Assembly: GCA_965204535.1 (NCBI GenBank)
Contig: CBDBEV010000001.1
Span: 2,048,001-2,112,000 of the forward strand
Source: a bacterium
Lineage (GTDB): Bacteria > UBA8248
Direction: 5' to 3'
DNA length: 64,000 bases
A program made the position numbers and the translations under genes. Every line of letters begins with the position of its first letter. Position 1 is the stretch's first letter. This document shows, in pieces, positions 43,296-58,315 of this stretch. Under the pieces are notes generated by a model. It did not search any database, was not told the DNA's origin, and worked only from the letters and a program-made list of their open reading frames with translations.

Positions 43296-44144
43296 ATGAA
43301 GCGTTTGCTGGTGCTGATGTTGATTGTAGGTACTTTCCTGGCTATTCAACCTGCGTTCCCTGCGTCCGATTGTCCTCTCAAGGGCCACCCTGTGGGAGAT
43401 GGCCGCTGGAAGCGGCGGCAATCCCTGCCACTGGATACGCGAGACGTTCGAATCCGGTTCGAAAACGGCACGACCGCGCGGATGAAGGCGGTTCGACTGC
43501 GGCATCAAGATTTTGAAATCAGGCTCCACTGGCGCGATAAATCCGATTGGTTCGTACCTGTCGACTTCGGTGCTCTCGCCGAAAAACTGGGCGCCGCCGT
43601 TATTCTCAACGCCGGCTATTATGATGAAAAAGGCCGGCCGATGGGGTATTTCCGCTCGGGCGGCAAGGTGTTCAACAGCCTTGTATTGCATCGGGGGCGC
43701 AAGACGTTTCTGCACTATGGCGCGCTGTTCGCGGTGGAGCGGAACGACGGGAGGCCCAAAATCGTTTCCCGCGAGAATTTCGAGGATTCGGGCGTCAGTG
43801 AAGCGTTTCAGGCGGGGCCTCTTCTGGTGATGGACGGGAAGCCCGTTCAGGGGCTGTCCCGCTACCGGGAATATCTGCGCGCCTCGAGGAGGACGGTCGT
43901 CGGCTTGGACGCCGAGGACAGGCTGGTCGTTCTGGTGAGCGAGGCCGAGACGCGCGGCATCTCCTGGTGTGAGCTTCAGGCGTTTCTCGTTCTGCCCGAA
44001 TCGAAGGGAGGCCTCGGCGTCCGCGACGCCATGAACCTCGACGGCGGCTCGAGTTCGCAGTTGTGGGTGCGGGGCGCAATTGAGATTCCGGGGCGGGCGG
44101 CGCCCACCTACATCATTGCGGTTCCGAAGCCAAAAACCAGATAA
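43296..44144 (+). CDS. Phosphodiester glycosidase (NAGPA/DUF2233) family exported protein
   Basis: Signal peptide, LNAGYY, QAGPLLV, RTVVG, AMNLDGGSSS. Confidence 0.87.
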   Translation: MKRLLVLMLIVGTFLAIQPAFPASDCPLKGHPVGDGRWKRRQSLPLDTRDVRIRFENGTTARMKAVRLRHQDFEIRLHWRDKSDWFVPVDFGALAEKLGAAVILNAGYYDEKGRPMGYFRSGGKVFNSLVLHRGRKTFLHYGALFAVERNDGRPKIVSRENFEDSGVSEAFQAGPLLVMDGKPVQGLSRYREYLRASRRTVVGLDAEDRLVVLVSEAETRGISWCELQAFLVLPESKGGLGVRDAMNLDGGSSSQLWVRGAIEIPGRAAPTYIIAVPKPKTR

Positions 44145-44190
44145 TTCCTTATATATCAAAGCTATAAATTTTCAGAAATTTATCGGAAGA
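44091..44190 (+). repeat. 100-bp direct repeat, copy 1 (3' end of the NAGPA gene plus downstream sequence)
   Basis: Ungapped 88/100 match to 49481-49580 by manual comparison. Confidence 0.9.
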
Positions 44191-44449
44191 CTCGCTAATC
44201 TCCTCAATGATTGGCGGGGGTTGATATCAAATGCACAAAACAGAAGTTGCGCGCCCTCGCGCACCGGCTCGCTCAACTCGTCCCGTAGGGCTGGATTCGG
44301 GAAAGGAATCGTCGTATCTTCTCTCATGGTGGAGCATCTCCTGTGTGCTGAATGACCGAGCTTTGGACAACTTTATTTCAGCAGGATGCGCCGCCTTCTT
44401 CAATTCAGCTCATACACAACTTCTGACAGTAACTCGTCGGGGAGTGCCC

Positions 44450-49480: not shown

Positions 49481-49580
49481 GGGCGGGCGGCGCCCACCTA
49501 CATCATCGCCGCTCCGAGGCCGAAAACCGGATAACTCCTTATATATCAAATCTATATACTTTCAGAAATTTACCGGAAAA
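49481..49580 (+). repeat. 100-bp direct repeat, copy 2 (orphan copy of the NAGPA 3' end)
   Basis: Matches 44091-44190 and still encodes GRAAPTYII..P.PKT-stop. Confidence 0.9.
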
Positions 49581-49880
49581 CCCCGTGAATTTATCGGTAT
49601 TTCTCGAATTTTTCAGTAATTCCGATTCGCGGGTCGAACGCGGGTGAGGAGCGGCTGCGGTTTGCCGACCGGAAGAAAGAGGGGCTGCGATTCTCCGATC
49701 GAACCGGATCGCCCTTTCCATTTTCTCCCCTCCTCCCGCCGGTTTGATGCTCCCTTTCCCGCGCGGGATTATCGCCTCCTCCGGGGAATGCCCGATGACG
49801 GCAAATGCGGGGAAATGCGCGGTGGTGTTCTCGGGGGGGGGGGGGACGCCCCCTAGTGACAATATGAATCCTGCAAGCCC

Positions 49881-50114
49881 GTTGTGGATTGCGCGCAGGC
49901 ATCGATCAGCTACAATGAAGGTGCTTGCGCGTCGTTTTGAACTCCGGTTGTGGATTGCGCGCAGGCATCGATCAGCTACAATCGTCTCATTGCCAGCCAC
50001 ATTTTCGATTGTGTTGTGGATTGCGCGCAGGCATCGATCAGCTACAATTAAGAAAGCATCTACGGAATTTACGTTGACGTTGTGGATTGCGCGCAGGCAT
50101 CGATCAGCTACAAT
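49881..50114 (+). CRISPR. Type II-C CRISPR array: 4 identical 36-bp repeats (GTTGTGGATTGCGCGCAGGCATCGATCAGCTACAAT) and 3 spacers of 30 bp
   Basis: Repeats at 49881, 49947, 50013 and 50079. The + orientation is inferred from complementarity to the tracrRNA anti-repeat and the GTTGT...GCTACAAT II-C pattern. Confidence 0.97.
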
Positions 50115-50203
50115 TGGTTCTCTCCAAGTGATTGAACCGATTGGGTCAAGGCTCCCGAAGACAGGTCGGAACAATGTGATCTGCTCGGGAGCCTTTTCCG
50201 TCG
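50115..50203. repeat. Duplicated copy of the cas2 3' end and trailer
   Basis: 50176-50203 is identical to 50923-50950 (28 bp), with further matches upstream (gattgaa, aaggctcccg). Confidence 0.85.
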
Positions 50204-50353
50204 TCCCATGAACTTCTCTCTGTAATGTTTAGCTGGGAAATTTGTTTCTCCGCACATCAAAATATGCGCTAAGTAGATTTGTTCTCATCACTTGTTTTCT
50301 ATGAAACGTAATGTATACTTAAATGGTGAAATCACATTAAATGGGCAATAGGC

Positions 50354-50439
50354 CATCCTTGGCGGGACTCGAACCCGCGAGGCTCGTCTAAGCCGCTAGC
50401 TTCCAAGGCTAGTGTGTATACCGATTCCACCACAGGGAT
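50354..50439 (-). tRNA. Non-canonical tRNA: long-variable-arm (Ser/Leu-type) body with UGG (Pro) anticodon
   Basis: Minus strand folds as ATCCCTG TG GTGGAATCGGTATACAC A CTAGC CTTGGAA GCTAG C GGCTT AGAC GAGCC TC GCGGG TTCGAGT CCCGC CAAGGAT G. Full cloverleaf with one acceptor mismatch; no encoded CCA. Confidence 0.85.
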
Positions 50440-50488
50440 AGCCGGTCGGGGGAGTGTTGCATCCCCGGCCTATTGCCTTGTCTTCAAT

Positions 50489-50700
50489 GACCCGTGGCGC
50501 GGGTAAAATCTATACCCTATTTACAGGGTTTAGGTTTGCTTCGCTTATGTGGATCAACCTGCACCGTTTTAGGCCCAGGTTTTTTGCCAGATCGAACTTG
50601 ACGCGGTTTTTTCTGACAATCAGCCATCGGTTTCTCCTTTCTCCTTCGGCCAATATCCGAAGGTGGTTAGAGTAACGGGAGGATTCCCGCGCCACGGGTC
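50489..50700. repeat. Perfect 15-bp inverted repeat enclosing the sORF
   Basis: gacccgtggcgcggg (50489-50503) / cccgcgccacgggtc (50686-50700). Confidence 0.9.
50517..50627 (-). CDS. 36-aa Lys/Pro-rich small protein MADCQKKPRQVRSGKKPGPKTVQVDPHKRSKPKPCK
   Basis: Manual translation; tandem SD AAGGAGAAAGGAG directly upstream of the ATG; below the ORF-track cutoff. Confidence 0.65.
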   Translation of the reverse strand: MADCQKKPRQVRSGKKPGPKTVQVDPHKRSKPKPCK

Positions 50701-50719
50701 TTTAGACCCAAGAGAGGTT

Positions 50720-50748
50720 AATATATATCACTTCTTGTAAGAAATCAA
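50720..50748 (-). promoter_or_regulatory. Sigma70-type promoter for the sORF-tRNA transcript, containing the putative Cas9 target site
   Basis: Minus strand TTGATT(50748-50743)-17 nt-TATATT(50725-50720); the spacer holds the 12-nt match at 50728-50739. Confidence 0.7.
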
Positions 50749-50765
50749 ATATGTAGTGGCAACAG

Positions 50766-50794
50766 TTGCAAACAAATACCAATTCAACTAGATT
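50766..50794 (+). promoter_or_regulatory. Putative promoter for the crRNA-like RNA
   Basis: TTGCAA-17 nt-TAGATT, back-to-back with the minus-strand promoter; alternative -10 TACAAT at 50794-50799. Confidence 0.55.
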
Positions 50795-50799
50795 ACAAT

Positions 50800-50891
50800 T
50801 TATCGTTACAAGGTCACTTCTTGTAGTTGTGAATTGTAACGAGGCGTCGATCAGCTATGGGTCGATTCATTCTTACCGATTGAATCGACCC
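50800..50891 (+). ncRNA. Stand-alone crRNA-like RNA (spacer, degenerate repeat, hairpin); CreA/scaRNA-like
   Basis: Degenerate repeat GTTGTGAATTGTAACGAGGCGTCGATCAGCTATGGG at 50826-50861 (25/36 identical to the array repeat). It is preceded by TCACTTCTTGTA (50814-50825) and followed by an 11-bp hairpin (50859-50869/50881-50891). Confidence 0.75.
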
Positions 50892-50912
50892 GTCGAAGGC
50901 TCCCGGGACGGA

Positions 50913-51242
50913 TCAGAACAGCGTGATCTGCTCGGGAGCCTTTTCCGTCGCCTTGCGGATCTTCCCGTAGAAAATCTTCATCCGCGAGAACTGCTTGTCG
51001 GTGAAAAGCAGAAGCCGCACCTCCCCGTCCGGGGGAAGCGCGGCGTTGATGCGCCGCTCGTGCACCTCAGCGTTCTCGGAACTCGGGCAATGCCGGGCGT
51101 AGACGGAATACTGGAGCATCGTGAACCCGTCTTCGAGCAGGGAGCCGCGAAACTCCTGGTAGGCCTTGCGCGCCGCCTTCGTGTCCGTCGGCAGATCGAA
51201 CATCACCATGAGCCACATGCTGCGCCACCCCCCGAAGCTCAT
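50913..51242 (-). CDS. cas2: CRISPR-associated endoribonuclease Cas2
   Basis: MWLMVMFDLPT, FRGSLLEDGFTMLQYSVYAR, TDKQF, EQITLF. Confidence 0.97.
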   Translation of the reverse strand: MSFGGWRSMWLMVMFDLPTDTKAARKAYQEFRGSLLEDGFTMLQYSVYARHCPSSENAEVHERRINAALPPDGEVRLLLFTDKQFSRMKIFYGKIRKATEKAPEQITLF

Positions 51243-52132
51243 GGCCGGGGGATTTCCGTCTCCTTCTCCTCCCCGCAGAGGACGCGGCGCACGCCCGCGG
51301 CGTAGTATTGAAGGGCGGTGAGAAGCGGATAGGTCTTTCCGCCGAAGCGCACCTCCTCGGCGAGCACGCCCAGGAGTTCGCGCTTTTCTTCTTTCTCCAG
51401 TTCGAGTTCCTCTCCCCAGAACTCCGGTTCATCCCGCATCCGGCGCACCCGGCGGTCCACCATCGGGCGGAGCGGCTCCATCAGGTCGTCCGCCAGGCAG
51501 AAACCGTCGTACTGGTTGTGGTGGTGCAGGCCGAAGGCGGGGTGCAGACCCGCCGCCACGACCGCCCGCGCCGTGGCCGCGCGGATGAGCGAATAGCCGT
51601 AGTTCAAGAGCCGGTTCACGCCCGGAAGCGCGCGGTTTCTTCTGAAATCCGGCCCGAACATCCTCGGCCAGTACATTCTCGCGGCGCGGGCTTCCGCCTG
51701 GGCGGGGTTTTCACGCCCCGCGCGCCCGGCGATGGCCCGGAGCGGTTCGCCGTATTCCTCGAAGGCGTCGAGCGCGTCGGCCTGGGCGAGAATCTTCGCG
51801 CGCACGACCGCCCGCCAGAGGCGGCTCATCCTGCCGGGGGTGGCGGCGGCCTGTTCCTTCACGATCTTGCTGTGCAGGGTGTGCCCGTCCAGCGGGAGCA
51901 GGACGGAGGCGGGCAGGTGCTTCTCGTCGCACATCACGACGGCGACGTTGTTCTTCATGCACTCCGACAGCAAGCCCTGGGAGGGGCGGATGGCCGGGTG
52001 ATCCAGAATCAGGACGCCGAGGTCCTCCACGGGGAGCGACTCTGCGGCGAACTCCTCCCGCTCCACTTTCAATTGCTTTCGGCTGAGCGAGAGACGGGCG
52101 GGACTTCCGATTTCGACGATTCGTTTAATCAT
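51239..52132 (-). CDS. cas1: Type II CRISPR-associated endonuclease Cas1
   Basis: EARAARMYWPRMFG..FRR, NRLLNYGY, GLHH.NQY..FCLADDLMEPLRP. Confidence 0.97.
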   Translation of the reverse strand: MIKRIVEIGSPARLSLSRKQLKVEREEFAAESLPVEDLGVLILDHPAIRPSQGLLSECMKNNVAVVMCDEKHLPASVLLPLDGHTLHSKIVKEQAAATPGRMSRLWRAVVRAKILAQADALDAFEEYGEPLRAIAGRAGRENPAQAEARAARMYWPRMFGPDFRRNRALPGVNRLLNYGYSLIRAATARAVVAAGLHPAFGLHHHNQYDGFCLADDLMEPLRPMVDRRVRRMRDEPEFWGEELELEKEEKRELLGVLAEEVRFGGKTYPLLTALQYYAAGVRRVLCGEEKETEIPRP

Positions 52133-55085
52133 GGGCGGCCTCCAGGTTTCCCAGGGGATCGACGGACATCTTGCGTCCCCTGAGCGTGTTGGGGGATGTG
52201 ATCAAGCGTGTCGTATTGTCATCCAAGAAAGCGGCCGTATGGGCCCGCAGCGTAATTACTTGTCGTTTCCCTATGGCTGAAATAAGTTGAACGCGGTAAA
52301 GATCGCAGCCGTTCTCCGGCACATCGAGTTTCACCAGATCGTTGATGGAAAGCGACATCACGAACCGCTGGCCCTCTTCGCAATCCCGCCGGACAACGGG
52401 AGTCCGCGCACGCCGGGCGCGCCGGGCCGCTTCCATGGCCGAGACGACGCGGCCCGCGCGCCTGCCCGTCTCTATGTTCTCGATGATCTCGATGTGGTGA
52501 TTGTTCCCCAATGCGTAGTACTTGAAGGGTTTTTCTTCCCCTTCTCTCTTGACGCCGAACAATCCATTCGGGTTCAGGTTCTCGGCGACGCGCACCGTCT
52601 CGATTCGCGTTCTGCCCGTTCCCTTGTTTGAATGCTCCAGATAGAGCGGCTTTGCGAAGGCACCCTTGGTCTTTTCACCGTGAGCCTTCATACGCTCTTC
52701 GATCAACGCCCGGATGCGAGGGTCGACGATTTTTTCCACCTGCTTCGTCGTGAGCGATTCGAGGGAGACTCTTCGGACGAAAACGTCCTCTCCATCGTGC
52801 GAGATGCGCCCGTAGGCGGTCTCCTCGTGAAAGGCCCCGCTTATCTTCCTGAGCGGCTGGTGGGAGACGACGATTTTCTCTATCCTCTCCCGAACCTCGG
52901 CATCGAATCCGGGCCAGGGCGGCGGCAACGGAAAACGCCTCTTGCCCAGAATCTCCCGCGACTCTGCGGAAAGATTCGCGATGGAATAAAACAACTTCCG
53001 GTTCGTGAGAGCGACGACCAGCGCGTCGACTGCGTGGTGGCGATGGTCGGCGCGGTTTTTCTCCATGTCCGAATCGTCGGCCAGAATCGAGTTCAGCCCC
53101 CAGGAGCGGCGCAGGGCGGCGGTGGCCTGTCCCGTCGTCACTTCAATGGTTGTGTCGAGGTGCCCGAGATAATCCCTCACCTCGCGGCTGATGTAGCGCG
53201 TGTCGTTGAGCTGGCGTTCGATGAACTTGTCCACCTCGATTTCTTTCTGATCGAAGCGCCTTTTCTTCGTGTAAGGCATCTCCTTCATGGAGAAAACGCG
53301 CTGGCGCATGTCGGAGTCGCCTCCCTTCCATTCATGAGGCGTTTTGTCCCCCTTCTCCCGGTTGGCCGAAGCCAGGGAGAGCACCTTGTTCATGTAGGAA
53401 TCATCGAGCGTCCGGCTGTAGGGGAGAATGTGATCCACCTCGTATGCCGCGCTGAAGATATCTCGACAGCCGATGCTCGCGCCCGTGTAGGGGCATTGGC
53501 CCTTCTGCTCTTTCCACAGCCGGTATCTGAGTCTGTTCCCCCCGTTGTCGGAAACCCCCACCTCCGCTATCACTTTGCGCGCCTCGTCGTTCAGGTCCTG
53601 GTTCTTCCTGTTCTGAGTGTTGAGCTTTATTTTTTGCTTTTGGCCGAGCTTTAAGTCCCGCGCGAGTTCCACGCGGATGCGCGCGGGCTTCCCGTGTTTT
53701 CGAATGACGGCGTTCACCACCTTCCGCACCTCGTTGATCGCTTTCTGGACGATGGGGTTTCTAAGATCCGGGGCGGGCGGAAGCGCGTCCTTCGCGTCGA
53801 TTCGTTTTTGATCCTCGCGCAAATAGCCCGCCGCCTGATAGGCGTCGTGGTAATTCTTCCCCTGCTCCAAGTAGGGCGTAATTCTGCGAATCGCCCGGAG
53901 GGAAAGGTGGGAGTAGCCCGGTTGAAATTCCGTGTTCAAGAAAGCATCCGCCTGATCGTGCGAGAGCTCCCAATGCTCCGTCAGCCGCTTTAGAAGAGTC
54001 TCTTCCTTATGGGTGCTGAACAACTCATCCAGAAACTCTTCCTGCTTGCTCACCGGCATGGCCTCCCACGCCTTTTTCGTGAGGATTTTCCGGACGTCGA
54101 CGAGCGTACGCGCGCCCATCAGGTTCTTCTTCCCGCCCTCTTCGATGTTGAAGGTCTCGCGAGAGTGCAAACCGAGCGCCTTGCGAGCGCCGTTCCAGGT
54201 GAGCGTTTTCTTCTCCCGAAGCTGTTTCTTGATGACTTCTCTTTCGTCTTGTCCGAGCTGTCGATACCCTCCTGTTTCGGGGACTCTGACTTCGAGATTG
54301 TTCACGTCCTGAAGGGTTCGGAACCATTGCGCCTCCGGTCGGCACCAGGGGCATCGCTTCTTGTGCGGCTCGAAGGTGCATTTTCCGACGAGATTCTTCT
54401 GGAGTTTCAGGGGACGCTGGAAGAACAGGATTTTGCGAATCCGCGCGCGGAGCGCATCGGTGAGCAAATCGGGCTTGAACTCCGCCTGCTTACTCCAGAG
54501 TCTGTCGAACTCCTCCTCGTACATAACGCGCTCCGTGCGGCGGTTCCTCTTCTTGGGCTGGTCGGCCAGAAACTCACCCAGCGTGCGGGAGTGCGACTGC
54601 TCGATTTCCCTCCTGAGCTCTCCGATCTCCTGCTTGACGACGCCGTCCTCTTTTTTCTTTTCCCCGGAATCGCGCACCTTGCGGTTGCTGAGGAATCCAC
54701 GCCTCTGGTTCAGGTGGAAAAGGGCGCGCCCGAACTCGTGGGGAGTCAATTCATTGTCCAGCCCCCGCTTTCTGATCTCGTAGGGGTCGGCGCGGTGGAA
54801 CAACTCCTCCCGATCGTGTTCGTTCTCCGGCATAAGCTCGCACCGAATGAGTTCGCTTTGAAGGGTGTCGCGGCGCATCTTCCGCCTGAAACGCTGGCGG
54901 CGGGCCTGGCGGGCGTCGCGCCGCTTGTGGTTCTTGGGGGTCTTCTTCTGCCTGTCGACCATTTCCTGAAACACGCGGACGCCGATTGCTTCGATGCCCT
55001 GCGGATCGCCGGCTTCGTCCTCTTCGACGAGCGCCCAGCCGATGGAATTCGGGCCCAGATCGAGGCCCAACGTAAGATGGCGCAT
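52125..55085 (-). CDS. cas9: Type II-C Cas9, 986 aa
   Basis: RuvC-I LGLDLGPNSIGWA, Arg-rich bridge helix, RRGF, NPIVQKA/RVELAR, HNH DHILPYSR..DDSYMNKVL....NREK, RQLNDTRY, RuvC-III HHAVDA; no csn2 or cas4. Confidence 0.97.
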   Translation of the reverse strand: MRHLTLGLDLGPNSIGWALVEEDEAGDPQGIEAIGVRVFQEMVDRQKKTPKNHKRRDARQARRQRFRRKMRRDTLQSELIRCELMPENEHDREELFHRADPYEIRKRGLDNELTPHEFGRALFHLNQRRGFLSNRKVRDSGEKKKEDGVVKQEIGELRREIEQSHSRTLGEFLADQPKKRNRRTERVMYEEEFDRLWSKQAEFKPDLLTDALRARIRKILFFQRPLKLQKNLVGKCTFEPHKKRCPWCRPEAQWFRTLQDVNNLEVRVPETGGYRQLGQDEREVIKKQLREKKTLTWNGARKALGLHSRETFNIEEGGKKNLMGARTLVDVRKILTKKAWEAMPVSKQEEFLDELFSTHKEETLLKRLTEHWELSHDQADAFLNTEFQPGYSHLSLRAIRRITPYLEQGKNYHDAYQAAGYLREDQKRIDAKDALPPAPDLRNPIVQKAINEVRKVVNAVIRKHGKPARIRVELARDLKLGQKQKIKLNTQNRKNQDLNDEARKVIAEVGVSDNGGNRLRYRLWKEQKGQCPYTGASIGCRDIFSAAYEVDHILPYSRTLDDSYMNKVLSLASANREKGDKTPHEWKGGDSDMRQRVFSMKEMPYTKKRRFDQKEIEVDKFIERQLNDTRYISREVRDYLGHLDTTIEVTTGQATAALRRSWGLNSILADDSDMEKNRADHRHHAVDALVVALTNRKLFYSIANLSAESREILGKRRFPLPPPWPGFDAEVRERIEKIVVSHQPLRKISGAFHEETAYGRISHDGEDVFVRRVSLESLTTKQVEKIVDPRIRALIEERMKAHGEKTKGAFAKPLYLEHSNKGTGRTRIETVRVAENLNPNGLFGVKREGEEKPFKYYALGNNHHIEIIENIETGRRAGRVVSAMEAARRARRARTPVVRRDCEEGQRFVMSLSINDLVKLDVPENGCDLYRVQLISAIGKRQVITLRAHTAAFLDDNTTRLITSPNTLRGRKMSVDPLGNLEAAHD

Positions 55086-55133: not shown

Positions 55134-55135
55134 AG

Positions 55136-55270
55136 ATTATAGCTGATCGATGCCTGCGTTGCTTTTCATAACAAGAAGATTTCGTAACGAATTCTTCGCA
55201 GGCAATTCCCCGGAACGGGGAAACGACCTAACCCTCGCGACGCCTCGGCCTCTCCGGGGGTTCATTTTTT
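55136..55270 (+). ncRNA. tracrRNA
   Basis: Anti-repeat ATTATAGCTGATCGATGCCTGCGTTGCTTTTCATAAC (55136-55172), then AAG, hairpins (gaagatttcg..cgaattcttc; ttcccc..ggggaa) and a T run; divergent from cas9. Confidence 0.88.
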
Positions 55271-55423
55271 GTTGCGCCCCCTCGTTGGCCCCGACTTGCT
55301 CGCCGAGGTCGAGTGCATCGCCGCGTTGCCCGACTGAGCACGCCCGACTACACTCCCACCCGCCAATTTGTATATGTTTTCATCCGCCCGTTCTGATGAT
55401 GCGCGCGACGAAGGAGACACCAC

Positions 55424-56283: not shown

Positions 56284-56371
56284 GTATTTTCAACAATTGA
56301 TGAAAAAATAAATTAAGTGAAATATATTGACAATTTCATTAAATATGGTATTTTCATCAAATGATGAAATA
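56284..56371. promoter_or_regulatory. Two imperfect palindromic operators flanking a TTGACA promoter
   Basis: gtattttcaacaattgatgaaaa (56284) and gtattttcatcaaatgatgaaata (56348); TTGACA at 56327-56332. Confidence 0.6.
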
Positions 56372-57470
56372 TGATGAAAAATTGAAAGGACAAGATATTG
56401 AGTTTGTCGACGCTGTGCGCGATCTTCTCGAACATGTACCGCATGTGGAAGTTGGTCGGGTTGACTATGCTTCCAATATAGGACGCGAATATCAAATAGA
56501 TTTAAAGATCGGTCTAAGTCGTGACGGGGTAAATTATGAACTCATCATAGAAATGAAATCGAATGGGGCGCCACAGTTTGTGCGCTCCGCGATCTATCAA
56601 CTTAACAGCTATGTTGCGCATTCACTTCAATTTAGACACGCGGATGACAGCCGTCGTTTGATTCCGATGGTTGTCAGCCCCTACCTATCCCCGGAGTCGC
56701 GCGCAATCTGCAAAGCTCACAATGTCGCTTATCTCGATCTTTTCGGGAACGCGCATCTCACTTTCGATAGTGTCTATATTGATCGGGCCGTTGCAGGTAA
56801 GCCGAAGTCCGAAACCCGTGCTCTGCGGTCGATTTTCACCCCGAAGGCAGGCGCTATCCTGCGCGTTATGCTGCGTGATCCGGGCCGCGCATGGCGTGTC
56901 GCAAACTTGGCTGAAACAGCCAATACAAGCCTTGGTCATGTGAGCAATGTTCGCAAAGCTTTATTCGAGCGTGAATGGATCAAACAACAGGACGACGGCG
57001 GAGTCCTTGCCAAGCCGGACGCGCTGCTGAAAACCTGGCGAGAGAATTATCGCCGCCCGTCCGGTCATCGCATCACCGGATACACGCATCTCCACGGTGA
57101 GCAGCTTGAAAAGCGGCTGTTGGGAGCACTTAATTCGTATCCACAGAACCCCCGCGCGATCTACTCATTCCATTCCGCCGCCCAATGGATCGCACCTTAT
57201 GGCCGAGACGGCACATATAATTTCTATTCGGACGAGACAGGTGTTCAAACCTTGACTGAGGCATTGCGACTGGCGTCTGTTGCAAAAGGATCGAATGTCG
57301 TCATTCGTGTTCTCAAGGATGAGAGTCTGTTCGACGACGCGATCGAACCTAGGCCGGATATTTTCTGCACCAGCCCAATCGTCACGTATTTTGATTTGTG
57401 GAATGGCAATGACCGAGACCGTGAAGCTGCCGAGTATATAGCAAGGGAGTCCTTCCCGTGGCTAGAATAG
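56361..57470 (+). CDS. Type IV TA AbiEi-like antitoxin/transcriptional regulator
   Basis: PYLSPESRAIC....YLDLFGN, central wHTH (WRVANLAETANTSLGHVS), C-terminal SPIVTYFDL....RDREAAE; overlaps the downstream NTase gene. Confidence 0.72.
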   Translation: MMKYDEKLKGQDIEFVDAVRDLLEHVPHVEVGRVDYASNIGREYQIDLKIGLSRDGVNYELIIEMKSNGAPQFVRSAIYQLNSYVAHSLQFRHADDSRRLIPMVVSPYLSPESRAICKAHNVAYLDLFGNAHLTFDSVYIDRAVAGKPKSETRALRSIFTPKAGAILRVMLRDPGRAWRVANLAETANTSLGHVSNVRKALFEREWIKQQDDGGVLAKPDALLKTWRENYRRPSGHRITGYTHLHGEQLEKRLLGALNSYPQNPRAIYSFHSAAQWIAPYGRDGTYNFYSDETGVQTLTEALRLASVAKGSNVVIRVLKDESLFDDAIEPRPDIFCTSPIVTYFDLWNGNDRDREAAEYIARESFPWLE

Positions 57471-58315
57471 AACAGCGGTTCGCCCATGATTATGATTTTC
57501 GTTCCACTGCGGCGGTCAAGTCCGTATTGATCGAGATCGGACAGATCCTGGGTAGTTTCCAGGGCAAGTTCGTGGTGATCGGGGGCGCCGTTCCCTGGCT
57601 GTTGCCGAGCGAATCCAATATGTCCCATGTTGGCACTCTAGACGTGGATCTGTGTCTCGACGCCGAGGCCCTTGGCGATCGGGAATACGCCCGGCTCGTC
57701 AAATCCCTTCAGAGGCAGGGTTACAATCAGGACGAAAATTTTCGCCCCTTTCAGCTTATGCGTAACGTGCCTTCTCAAGACGGCGGGGCTGACATCAATG
57801 TCGTCGTGGATTTTCTCATGCCGCGCGGAGTCGAGATAGCGAAGAACATCCCGCCGCTTGTCAGCGAGTTCGCCGTACAGCGCGCCGACGGCGGTGACCT
57901 TGCGCTTAGATTCTACGAGGTGGTCCCCATCGAGGGCGAAATGCCCGGCGGTGGCCGCAATCGCGTGCATATTGCCGTGGCGTCGATCCCGGCGCTGTTG
58001 GCCATGAAAGGATACGCCATCGCCAATCGTTTGAAACAAAAAGACGCCTATGACATTTACTTCTCCGTCCGCAACTTTCTAGGCGGGCTGGACGCTCTCG
58101 TCGAAGCAACGAAGCCGCTCCTCGAAGTCGATTCGGCGCGAGAAGGCTATCGTTTGCTCTCGGAAAAATTCCGCAACGTGGATGATTTCGGTCCGACCAG
58201 CGTGCGGCAATTCTTGGAAGGTTCCGACGCGCTCGGCGAGCGCACTGCGGATCAATGGCAACAGGACGCCTTCGGTCAAGTCGACGCATGGCTCAAAGGA
58301 CTTGGCTTGAGGTAA
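57458..58315 (+). CDS. AbiEii-like nucleotidyltransferase toxin
   Basis: VVIGGAVP, HVGTLDVDL, LLAMK, KQKDAYDI. Confidence 0.75.
   Translation: MARIEQRFAHDYDFRSTAAVKSVLIEIGQILGSFQGKFVVIGGAVPWLLPSESNMSHVGTLDVDLCLDAEALGDREYARLVKSLQRQGYNQDENFRPFQLMRNVPSQDGGADINVVVDFLMPRGVEIAKNIPPLVSEFAVQRADGGDLALRFYEVVPIEGEMPGGGRNRVHIAVASIPALLAMKGYAIANRLKQKDAYDIYFSVRNFLGGLDALVEATKPLLEVDSAREGYRLLSEKFRNVDDFGPTSVRQFLEGSDALGERTADQWQQDAFGQVDAWLKGLGLR

Follow-up and report, generated by a model that had tools for sequence, protein, structure and literature searches.

Background

In CreTA, described for type I-B loci of haloarchaea and for type I-F loci, a short guide next to a degenerate repeat targets an adjacent promoter, and the toxin, CreT, is an RNA that sequesters a host tRNA. 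In CrePA, from the type I-F locus of Acinetobacter baylyi ADP1, a small protein gene of mobile or phage origin lies at the cas locus, and its promoter is matched in part by a crRNA-like RNA; according to the accessible text of the source, the protein, CreP, is a phage-derived toxic protein, and inhibition of the effector leads to its derepression (10.1101/2024.01.05.574328). With Cas9, repression by short matches is described for the scaRNA and tracr-L RNAs, in which a guide-repeat RNA pairs with tracrRNA; the match measures 11 nt for tracr-L and for the L. hominis scaRNA, and the Cas9 regulatory RNAs in the accessible parts of the literature searched target cas9 or a virulence regulon. Mini-arrays occur in about 6% of type II loci, with targets not named in the accessible text (10.1101/2023.03.03.530964), and a 2025 review (PMC12737573), as far as its accessible text goes, raises the question of CreTA-like safeguards in further CRISPR types.

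We analysed a bacterial stretch of 64,000 nt (G000:C2:2048001-2112000, hereafter 'the window'), for which inspection of the letters had led to the prediction of a CreTA-like, Cas9-repressed module with a tRNA and a small peptide as payload, located between cas2 and the CRISPR array.

Results

A 747-bp insert separates cas2 from the array

The cas9, cas1 and cas2 genes of the window all lie on the minus strand. The main features of the locus are as follows:

55135..55272, plus strand: tracrRNA, with anti-repeat and 3' hairpins (ends predicted)
52125..55085, minus strand: cas9, type II-C, 986 aa, RuvC and HNH catalytic motifs intact
51239..52132, minus strand: cas1
50913..51242, minus strand: cas2, intact; its 3' end likely arrived with the cassette
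50896..50942, no strand assigned: inverted repeat in the cas2 3' end, conserved in 8 of 8 aligned ends
50115..50215, minus strand: displaced original cas2 3' end (stop codon lost) and array leader
49881..50114, plus strand: CRISPR array, four repeats of 36 nt

The anti-repeat at 55135 marks the tracrRNA and thereby sets the plus strand as the crRNA strand. Cas2 and the array are separated by an insert of 747 bp that contains a peptide gene and a guide, and that is flanked on either side by a copy of the cas2 3' end with leader and repeat, the copies being spaced 747 nt apart. The duplicate at 50115-50215 had been overlooked in the original prediction. Misassembly could be ruled out, since positions 50086-50942 were recovered as a single contig with no difference in another sample (run X3); the insert is also bridged by joining contigs in three further runs (X4, X5 and X6). 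The inverted repeat at 50896..50942 is possibly the 3' hairpin or terminator of the guide RNA.

Three other elements were recorded nearby or elsewhere in the genome. An AbiEi/AbiEii type IV toxin-antitoxin pair (56361-58315) lies about 1.3 kb upstream of cas9, and a 101-nt direct repeat (44091-44191 and 49481-49581, 88% identical) flanks a 5.4-kb block just past the array. A second II-C locus (G000:C1:198900-205300; L001:8900-15300) has near-identical cas1-cas2 and a tracrRNA of the window's type, with a different Cas9 (1061 aa, 35% identical) and its own repeat; its tracrRNA is predicted to pair better with the window's degenerate repeat (-50.9) than with the array repeat (-43.2).

The lone guide matches the likely promoter of the payload

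The insert carries a guide, a degenerate repeat (the mini-repeat) and a candidate target, which were compared to those of a second genome of the same genus (G007):

50859..50891, plus strand: hairpin of 11 bp, an altered leader copy, at the degenerate repeat's 3' end (sequence, fold)
50826..50861, plus strand: degenerate repeat, 25 of 36 positions identical to the array repeat, 33 bases pairing with the tracrRNA, terminal TACAAT lost
50800..50825, plus strand: lone guide, 26 nt, seed at 50814-50825
50766..50799, plus strand: candidate guide promoter (8/12; weak) and upstream repeat-end remnant TACAAT
50728..50748, plus strand: putative Cas9 target of 12 nt and PAM-side 9 nt, a 21-nt block identical in G007
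50720..50748, minus strand: payload promoter, -35 at 50748-50743 and -10 at 50725-50720, same layout in G007

The lone spacer with its degenerate repeat was found as predicted: a mini-array at a cas locus, as in CreTA and CrePA. The guide's repeat-proximal 12 nt (50814-50825) are identical to 50728-50739, in the 17-nt spacer of the minus promoter, where about 1e-4 such matches would be expected in the interval; elsewhere in the 4.56-Mb genome, the 12-mer has just one other site. This seed-side partial match to the promoter of an adjacent gene (12 nt, and 13 nt in G007) is again the arrangement of CreTA and CrePA, while the combination of a catalytically intact Cas9 with a short exact seed match close to a transcription start is that of scaRNA. 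The start of the payload transcript, which would lie near 50713, meets the 5' arm of a long stem. The PAM-side flank of the target (AGAAATCA) is conserved in G007, yet it overlaps the -35 box.

The two back-to-back promoters of the original prediction fared unequally. The minus one (TTGATT-17-TATATT) scores 9/12 and was the sole promoter-like site called in 49500-52000. Sites of this quality occur once per 2.5 kb, which is the chance level (shuffle mean 1.2), and the promoter call therefore rests on position and conservation. The plus one is weaker than had been stated: the candidates are TTGCAA-17-TAGATT at 50766-50794 (8/12) or the leftover TACAAT at 50794-50799, and promoter calling over 49500-52000 returned no plus-strand guide promoter.

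The mini-repeat differs from the array repeat by 11 changes, and its predicted tracrRNA duplex is nearly as stable (-52.0 compared to -53.1 kcal/mol) with more paired bases (33 compared to 30). Among random repeats with 11 changes, none of 2000 matched this pairing, whether the changes were put at random positions or at the same positions (0/2000 in each null). The lone repeat is thus predicted to pair with tracrRNA, as in scaRNA. Folded alone, the guide folds back onto its own repeat (-18 kcal/mol); when co-folded, the tracrRNA takes the repeat. A predicted fold-back of the guide on neighbouring sequence is found in both genomes, at 50803-50843 in the window and L013:1013-1062 in G007, and differs between them. 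The start of the mini-repeat resembles the repeats of G007 and G009, unlike the window's own array.

Autoregulation of cas9 was rejected, because none of the five other guide matches of 10 to 12 nt is located at the cas9 promoter; their flanks also differ from that of the target. No protospacer was found for 194 distinct spacers compared to their own genome and all fetched loci, nor for the G014 and G009 arrays compared to 23 related genomes and phage records, all matches being to repeats or arrays. The Cas9 PI region has no relative in the PDB. In viral contigs, the repeat pattern gave 0 matches and the 19-nt target pattern a single one, in an apparent coding region and with no peptide in the 400 nt read, which was taken as chance. 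Lone repeat-like copies far from cas genes are present in the window's genome (C2:480316-480345, C2:468814-468838 and C1:732874-732904) and in G011, G012 and G016; the three in the window's genome had no convincing seed targets.

Guide and target recur in a second genome

Among the 61 genomes searched, G007 has an insert of the same arrangement. There, cas2 is followed by a degenerate repeat and the guide; next come the peptide gene, with its two stem arms, and the target promoter, and finally a cas2 remnant, the leader and the array. The seed and the 9-nt flank are those of the window, the peptide gene is inverted, and no intact tRNA is present. Due to the inversion, the guide stands at the 3' end of the very transcript that it would repress. 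The guide/target match extends over 13 nt (2e-5 expected), and the 12-mer occurs exactly twice in the genome, as guide and as target. The longest exact run common to both payloads is the 21-nt target plus flank, which exceeds any run in the coding region; what the two modules have conserved is exactly the seed and the PAM side, the rest of the guide and the flanks having diverged. Among 85 peptide loci, the target block is present in that of G007 alone and in none of the remaining 84 (best 16/21; seed at most 9/12), and it is therefore not a promoter element of the family.

As the same module is present in a second genome, and as the target is found only in the Cas9-linked copy, we consider it likely that Cas9 represses the peptide cassette. 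This part of the original prediction is thereby strengthened, by the recurrence of guide and target as well as by a tracrRNA pairing kept far beyond chance. Two features of G007 point the other way: its mini-repeat pairs less well with tracrRNA (-43.5 compared to -54.5), and its guide has no promoter of its own.

A search of the cas2-array intervals of related II-C loci, proposed along with the prediction as a way to find tRNA-like genes and guide/promoter covariation, yielded the G007 module and five empty sister loci out of seven (G014, G002, G009, G015 and G017). There, cas2 is directly followed by the leader and an array-type repeat, the G017 contig ending at that point; that these five loci persist without a module is a further point against repression as a safeguard. 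The proven modules are two only, with one ancestor and one seed, and guide-target covariation was not seen because both are of one origin. Among more distant loci, gathered by a Cas2 scan of metagenomes, no insert longer than 220 nt was present in the best 80 of 95 cas2 loci and in L133, with 19 having no array in view. In run X6, one contig has cas2 and the leader together with a degenerate repeat that is preceded by another guide end, and a second contig has a cas2 remnant (contigs 26 and 27); they may be a third module.

The payload gene is conserved as a protein

The repressed transcript would comprise the following elements:

50686..50712, minus strand: 5' arm of the long stem that surrounds the peptide ORF
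50517..50627, minus strand: gene for a 36-aa Lys/Arg/Pro-rich peptide of an unnamed mobile family, Shine-Dalgarno at 50634-50639
50477..50503, minus strand: 3' arm of the long stem
50344..50477, minus strand: tRNA precursor frame, with a hairpin upstream and an outer stem of 11 bp (50467-50477 pairing with 50344-50354); a homologue is present in G044
50354..50439, minus strand: Leu-type tRNA (long variable arm), anticodon UGG, with A1-U72, G73, A15-C48, a C5-A68 mismatch and no encoded CCA
50292..50319, plus strand: weak candidate for an antisense promoter directed towards the tRNA (8/12, chance level)

A structured transcript with a 36-codon ORF had been predicted, and the fold is indeed stronger than expected (z = -5.2). 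A search with a three-sequence profile gave 57 representatives, and subsequent scans, which covered 80 of 111 candidates in GTDB, gave at least 75 loci there and 14 in viral sequences. The members, of 33 to 45 aa, are found on phages and islands in many phyla, and share the consensus KPGPKTVxVxxHxRSKP with flanking Cys. Within the phylum, the peptide was detected with confidence in 2 of 51 genomes, which are the two module genomes, and G043 has one weak match containing a stop. The peptide had no match in Pfam, NCBIfam or the PDB, one in PHROG (E 0.069), and none by tblastn in plasmids or phages; its atlas scores did not exceed 0.80, with unnamed matches. No Rfam family matched any of 8 flanking loci, and a literature text search with the motif found nothing related.

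Between the window and G007, 30 codons of the peptide gene show 14 synonymous and 5 non-synonymous differences. For 77 peptide cores, a set picked by protein search, the third-position differences amount to 0.67, compared to 0.27 and 0.23 at the others. The peptide is conserved as a protein and is under purifying selection in both modules. In CreTA the toxin acts as an RNA and any ORF is irrelevant; here the ORF is what is kept. The CreTA-like classification thus holds for the layout of guide, repeat and promoter, but the conserved payload is a peptide, which places the module nearer to CrePA.

The stem around the peptide gene is a property of the family. Using the longest-stem length, and leaving out eight near-copies and loci with short flanks, a stem of at least 13 bp between the 5' and 3' UTRs was found in 40 of 81 loci, compared to 44 of 1215 swapped pairs, with arm sequences unrelated between loci. 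The duplex energy of whole UTRs discriminates weakly (14 of 81 loci below the 5th percentile of swapped pairs), whereas stem length does so clearly. We take such a stem to resemble those of type I toxin mRNAs. The neighbours of the peptide genes vary (phage portal/terminase, Fic, RhuM, Panacea, AbiEi, methylases and housekeeping genes, among 150 of 154 flanking ORFs scanned); an IS1595 transposase gene is within 7 of the 75 GTDB loci, and cas genes are near a single one (G007), the other 74 being without. Antisense promoters are not in excess (9 of 77 loci, 15 expected).

Cas9 might repress the cassette without its product being a toxin. The peptide would then be a small protein that does no harm or is of use to the cell, such as an RNA-binding helper or an inducible anti-phage factor, and the system would be a regulon of the scaRNA type or a passenger kept silent. 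This reading fits all of the regulatory evidence given so far, and also the absence of the module from five of seven sister loci. The peptide genes of the family mostly stand by themselves, without a partner gene and with a strong Shine-Dalgarno, and most have no visible antitoxin, which also counts against a toxic role. However, a neutral silenced passenger should decay, and the peptide is under purifying selection in both modules; moreover, the position at the cas locus is that of CreTA and CrePA. We regard this explanation as rather unlikely, and prefer the repression of a harmful product.

The tRNA is an accessory

The chimeric tRNA of the original prediction does exist, with a Leu-type body and the anticodon UGG. 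The host tRNAs nearest to it are of Leu type, with no Pro tRNA among the best 14, and a normal tRNA-Pro(UGG) is encoded elsewhere in the genome. By the E. coli rules, in the accessible text of PMC9976931, Leu identity lies in A73, A15-U48, G18G19 and A20a, and G73 is an antideterminant for LeuRS. The window tRNA has G73 and C48, whereas the UGG copies of G044 and of phages have A73 and U48. By the same rules, it is also without the Ser bases C72, G2-C71 and C11-G24 and the Pro bases G72, A73 and G37. It fits neither Leu, Ser nor Pro well and is likely attenuated. The copies of G044 and phages, with their Leu identity, would by E. coli rules put Leu at Pro codons; the phage copy additionally has the Pro bases G72, A73 and G37. 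In G044 the same tRNA unit, including the 3' stem arm, lies in a non-CRISPR island with no peptide.

An irregular tRNA on the same strand, at most 135 nt downstream of the peptide gene, was found in four lineages besides the window among 89 family loci: a set of five phage copies (Leu body, UGG), taken as one lineage, L047 (ochre anticodon UUA on a Leu body), L053 and L097. In L053 and L097, where the irregular tRNAs lie 0 to 260 nt past the peptide gene, the anticodon loops are enlarged, and L053 has two tRNA-like genes in tandem. A T-arm motif was present downstream in 6 of 78 loci, compared to a single upstream match, none on the reverse strand and 0 of 69 at distant positions; 2 of the 6 matches look like integration-site ends, and L097 was missed. 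The stems covary: over seven tRNAs of this kind, both partners differ in 13 of 24 base pairs. In viral contigs (80 of at least 121 loci), Leu-type D-arms with non-Leu anticodons are mostly ordinary phage tRNAs, and among these 80 only the known phage set had a peptide upstream, so that this type of tRNA needs no peptide.

Other unusual tRNAs were seen in these genomes. A Leu-type tRNA with anticodon GCG, G73 and an upstream hairpin (G000:C2:1733066-1733157; L002) lies just upstream of a defence cluster with an HmaA-like helicase, and a copy of tRNA-Leu(GAG) has the anticodon GCG (G000:C1:919698-919781). In an island after nuoN (G000:C2:2515268-2516894), two irregular tRNAs flank an IS1595-type transposase gene. 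Leu-type tRNAs with anticodons GUC and CCA are encoded in L030 (G008) and L218 (G022), the G008 tRNA island being flanked by a duplicated nuoN 3' end.

The toxic product could instead be the tRNA, or the whole RNA, putting Leu or Ser at Pro codons or jamming tRNA-handling enzymes, with the peptide secondary. Such a view would account for the peptide and Leu-type tRNA(UGG) pair of the phage lineage, for the unit with its 3' arm in G044, for the irregular tRNAs of four other lineages and for the covarying stems; missense allo-tRNAs, which adjoin toxin-antitoxin genes, killed E. coli, as the accessible text of PMC5389517 reports. Yet G007 retains the circuit and one half of the hairpin of the pre-tRNA (equalled in 0 of 500 shuffles), with at most a weak and doubtful trace of the tRNA itself (equalled in 14 of 500, and ARAGORN called none in this interval), and the window copy has the LeuRS antideterminant without Ser or Pro bases. 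We hold this explanation to be improbable. A tRNA attenuated in the window and lost in G007 is an accessory: the claim of the original prediction that it defines the payload is not borne out, G007 keeping guide, target and peptide gene with no intact tRNA, and the window tRNA having lost Leu identity bases. The conserved payload is the peptide.

History of the insert

The remnant in the window (50079-50203) is identical at 121 of 125 positions to the intact end of the empty locus G014; for the window's intact cas2 end with mini-repeat, the figure is 95 of 126. The window Cas9 is 82% identical to that of G014 and 73% to that of G007. This suggests that a replacement cas2 end came with the cassette, and that recombination carried the cassette from locus to locus. 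A Cas9 tree test rejected the clade of the window genome with G007 (p-AU 0.006), which is only a hint, since 4 of 4 inner branches were unsupported and the outgroup was very long. In G010, where no intact cas2 was found in the genome, an IS1595-like 5' fragment is fused to a cas2 3' remnant, a leader and a decayed repeat beside a tRNA-Arg gene (L015:1430-1615).

A functionless relic, made of a tandem cas2-end duplication and a decayed, once self-targeting spacer against an invading cassette, would fit the duplicated cas2 end, leader and repeat, the lone repeats and cas2-end remnant scattered in these genomes and a single event ancestral to both modules, but it is very doubtful given that exactly the seed and the PAM side are conserved, that tracrRNA pairing outlasted 11 changes, and that the guide-target pair outlasted inversion of the payload.

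Discussion

Direct evidence for the insert comprises its anatomy, the exact seed match in a promoter, the retained predicted pairing with tracrRNA, the recurring guide-target pair and the selection on the peptide. From these elements, the following model may be proposed. The guide would be transcribed toward cas2 and loaded on Cas9 like a crRNA, with tracrRNA. With 12 to 13 nt of pairing, Cas9 would occupy the promoter between its -35 and -10 boxes and leave the DNA uncut. The payload transcript would be freed if cas9 were lost or an anti-CRISPR acted, and the peptide would be a harmful product causing growth arrest once Cas9 is lost or inhibited. The tRNA would be an accessory, likely a miscoding cargo of the same family that has decayed in the window. 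More speculatively, RNase III may cut the long stem, thereby freeing the downstream cargo, which is the tRNA in the window and the guide in G007. The cassette, lying between two copies of the cas2 end, could be gained or lost via recombination.

That derepression harms the cell is slightly favoured, in view of the position, the selection on a repressed gene, the stem presumably like that of toxin mRNAs and the link to miscoding-type tRNAs. Whether the whole amounts to a CrePA-like safeguard run by Cas9 in a type II-C locus is evenly balanced. The broadest version must be more tentative, and falls somewhat short of that: this would be the first Cas9-run toxin-antitoxin, a mobile cassette entering at the cas2 3' end with its own tracrRNA-dependent guide, after which the cell depends on Cas9 or aborts under anti-CRISPR, with a payload family of translation-poisoning cassettes made of a basic peptide and optional missense, ochre or frameshift tRNAs.

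The locus is a compact, clonable test case of less than 1 kb plus cas9 and tracrRNA, and the two modules, one with and one without tRNA, form a natural comparison set with the five empty sister loci. Whatever the role of Cas9, an unnamed peptide family linked to miscoding-type tRNAs is a lead for a new class of toxin or defence.

Comparison with known systems

No type II CreTA or Cas9-repressed toxin was found in the accessible text of the literature searched (including 10.64898/2026.06.01.729453 and 10.1101/2024.10.29.618823), most subscription papers and supplements lying outside it and supplements possibly listing similar loci; nor was a combination of tRNA and peptide, within the same limit for subscription papers.

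Like the allo-tRNAs and irregular tRNA polycistrons (PMC5389517), of which some are toxic according to the accessible text, the module involves a long-arm tRNA with a non-cognate anticodon near toxin-antitoxin genes. The 8/4 or 9/3 acceptor branch described there is absent, the window tRNA having the canonical 7/5 Leu-type fold.

With scaRNA and tracr-L, as described in accessible sources, the module would share a guide-repeat RNA that pairs with tracrRNA and a short match by which Cas9 represses; in G007, where the guide is part of the transcript to be repressed, the layout is similar to that of the L. hominis scaRNA. The targets differ, these being the lipoprotein regulon or cas9 itself in the known systems, and a co-inserted mobile cassette here.

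With CreTA, as far as the accessible accounts go, the module shares a short guide with a degenerate repeat, a target located in the promoter next to it and a connection with tRNA and translation. CreT acts as an RNA, by sequestering a host tRNA, whereas in the window the ORF is selected as a protein and a whole tRNA gene comes along. CrePA, in the accessible text, is closer, with a partial match of a crRNA-like RNA to the promoter of a small mobile protein gene at the cas locus. Unlike CrePA, the window has Cas9 with tracrRNA as the putative effector, and the gene lies between cas2 and the array. Its peptide, a putative toxin, belongs to an unnamed family. Since the effector is a II-C Cas9 and not a type I Cascade, the module of the window is an analogue, not a member, of CreTA/CrePA.
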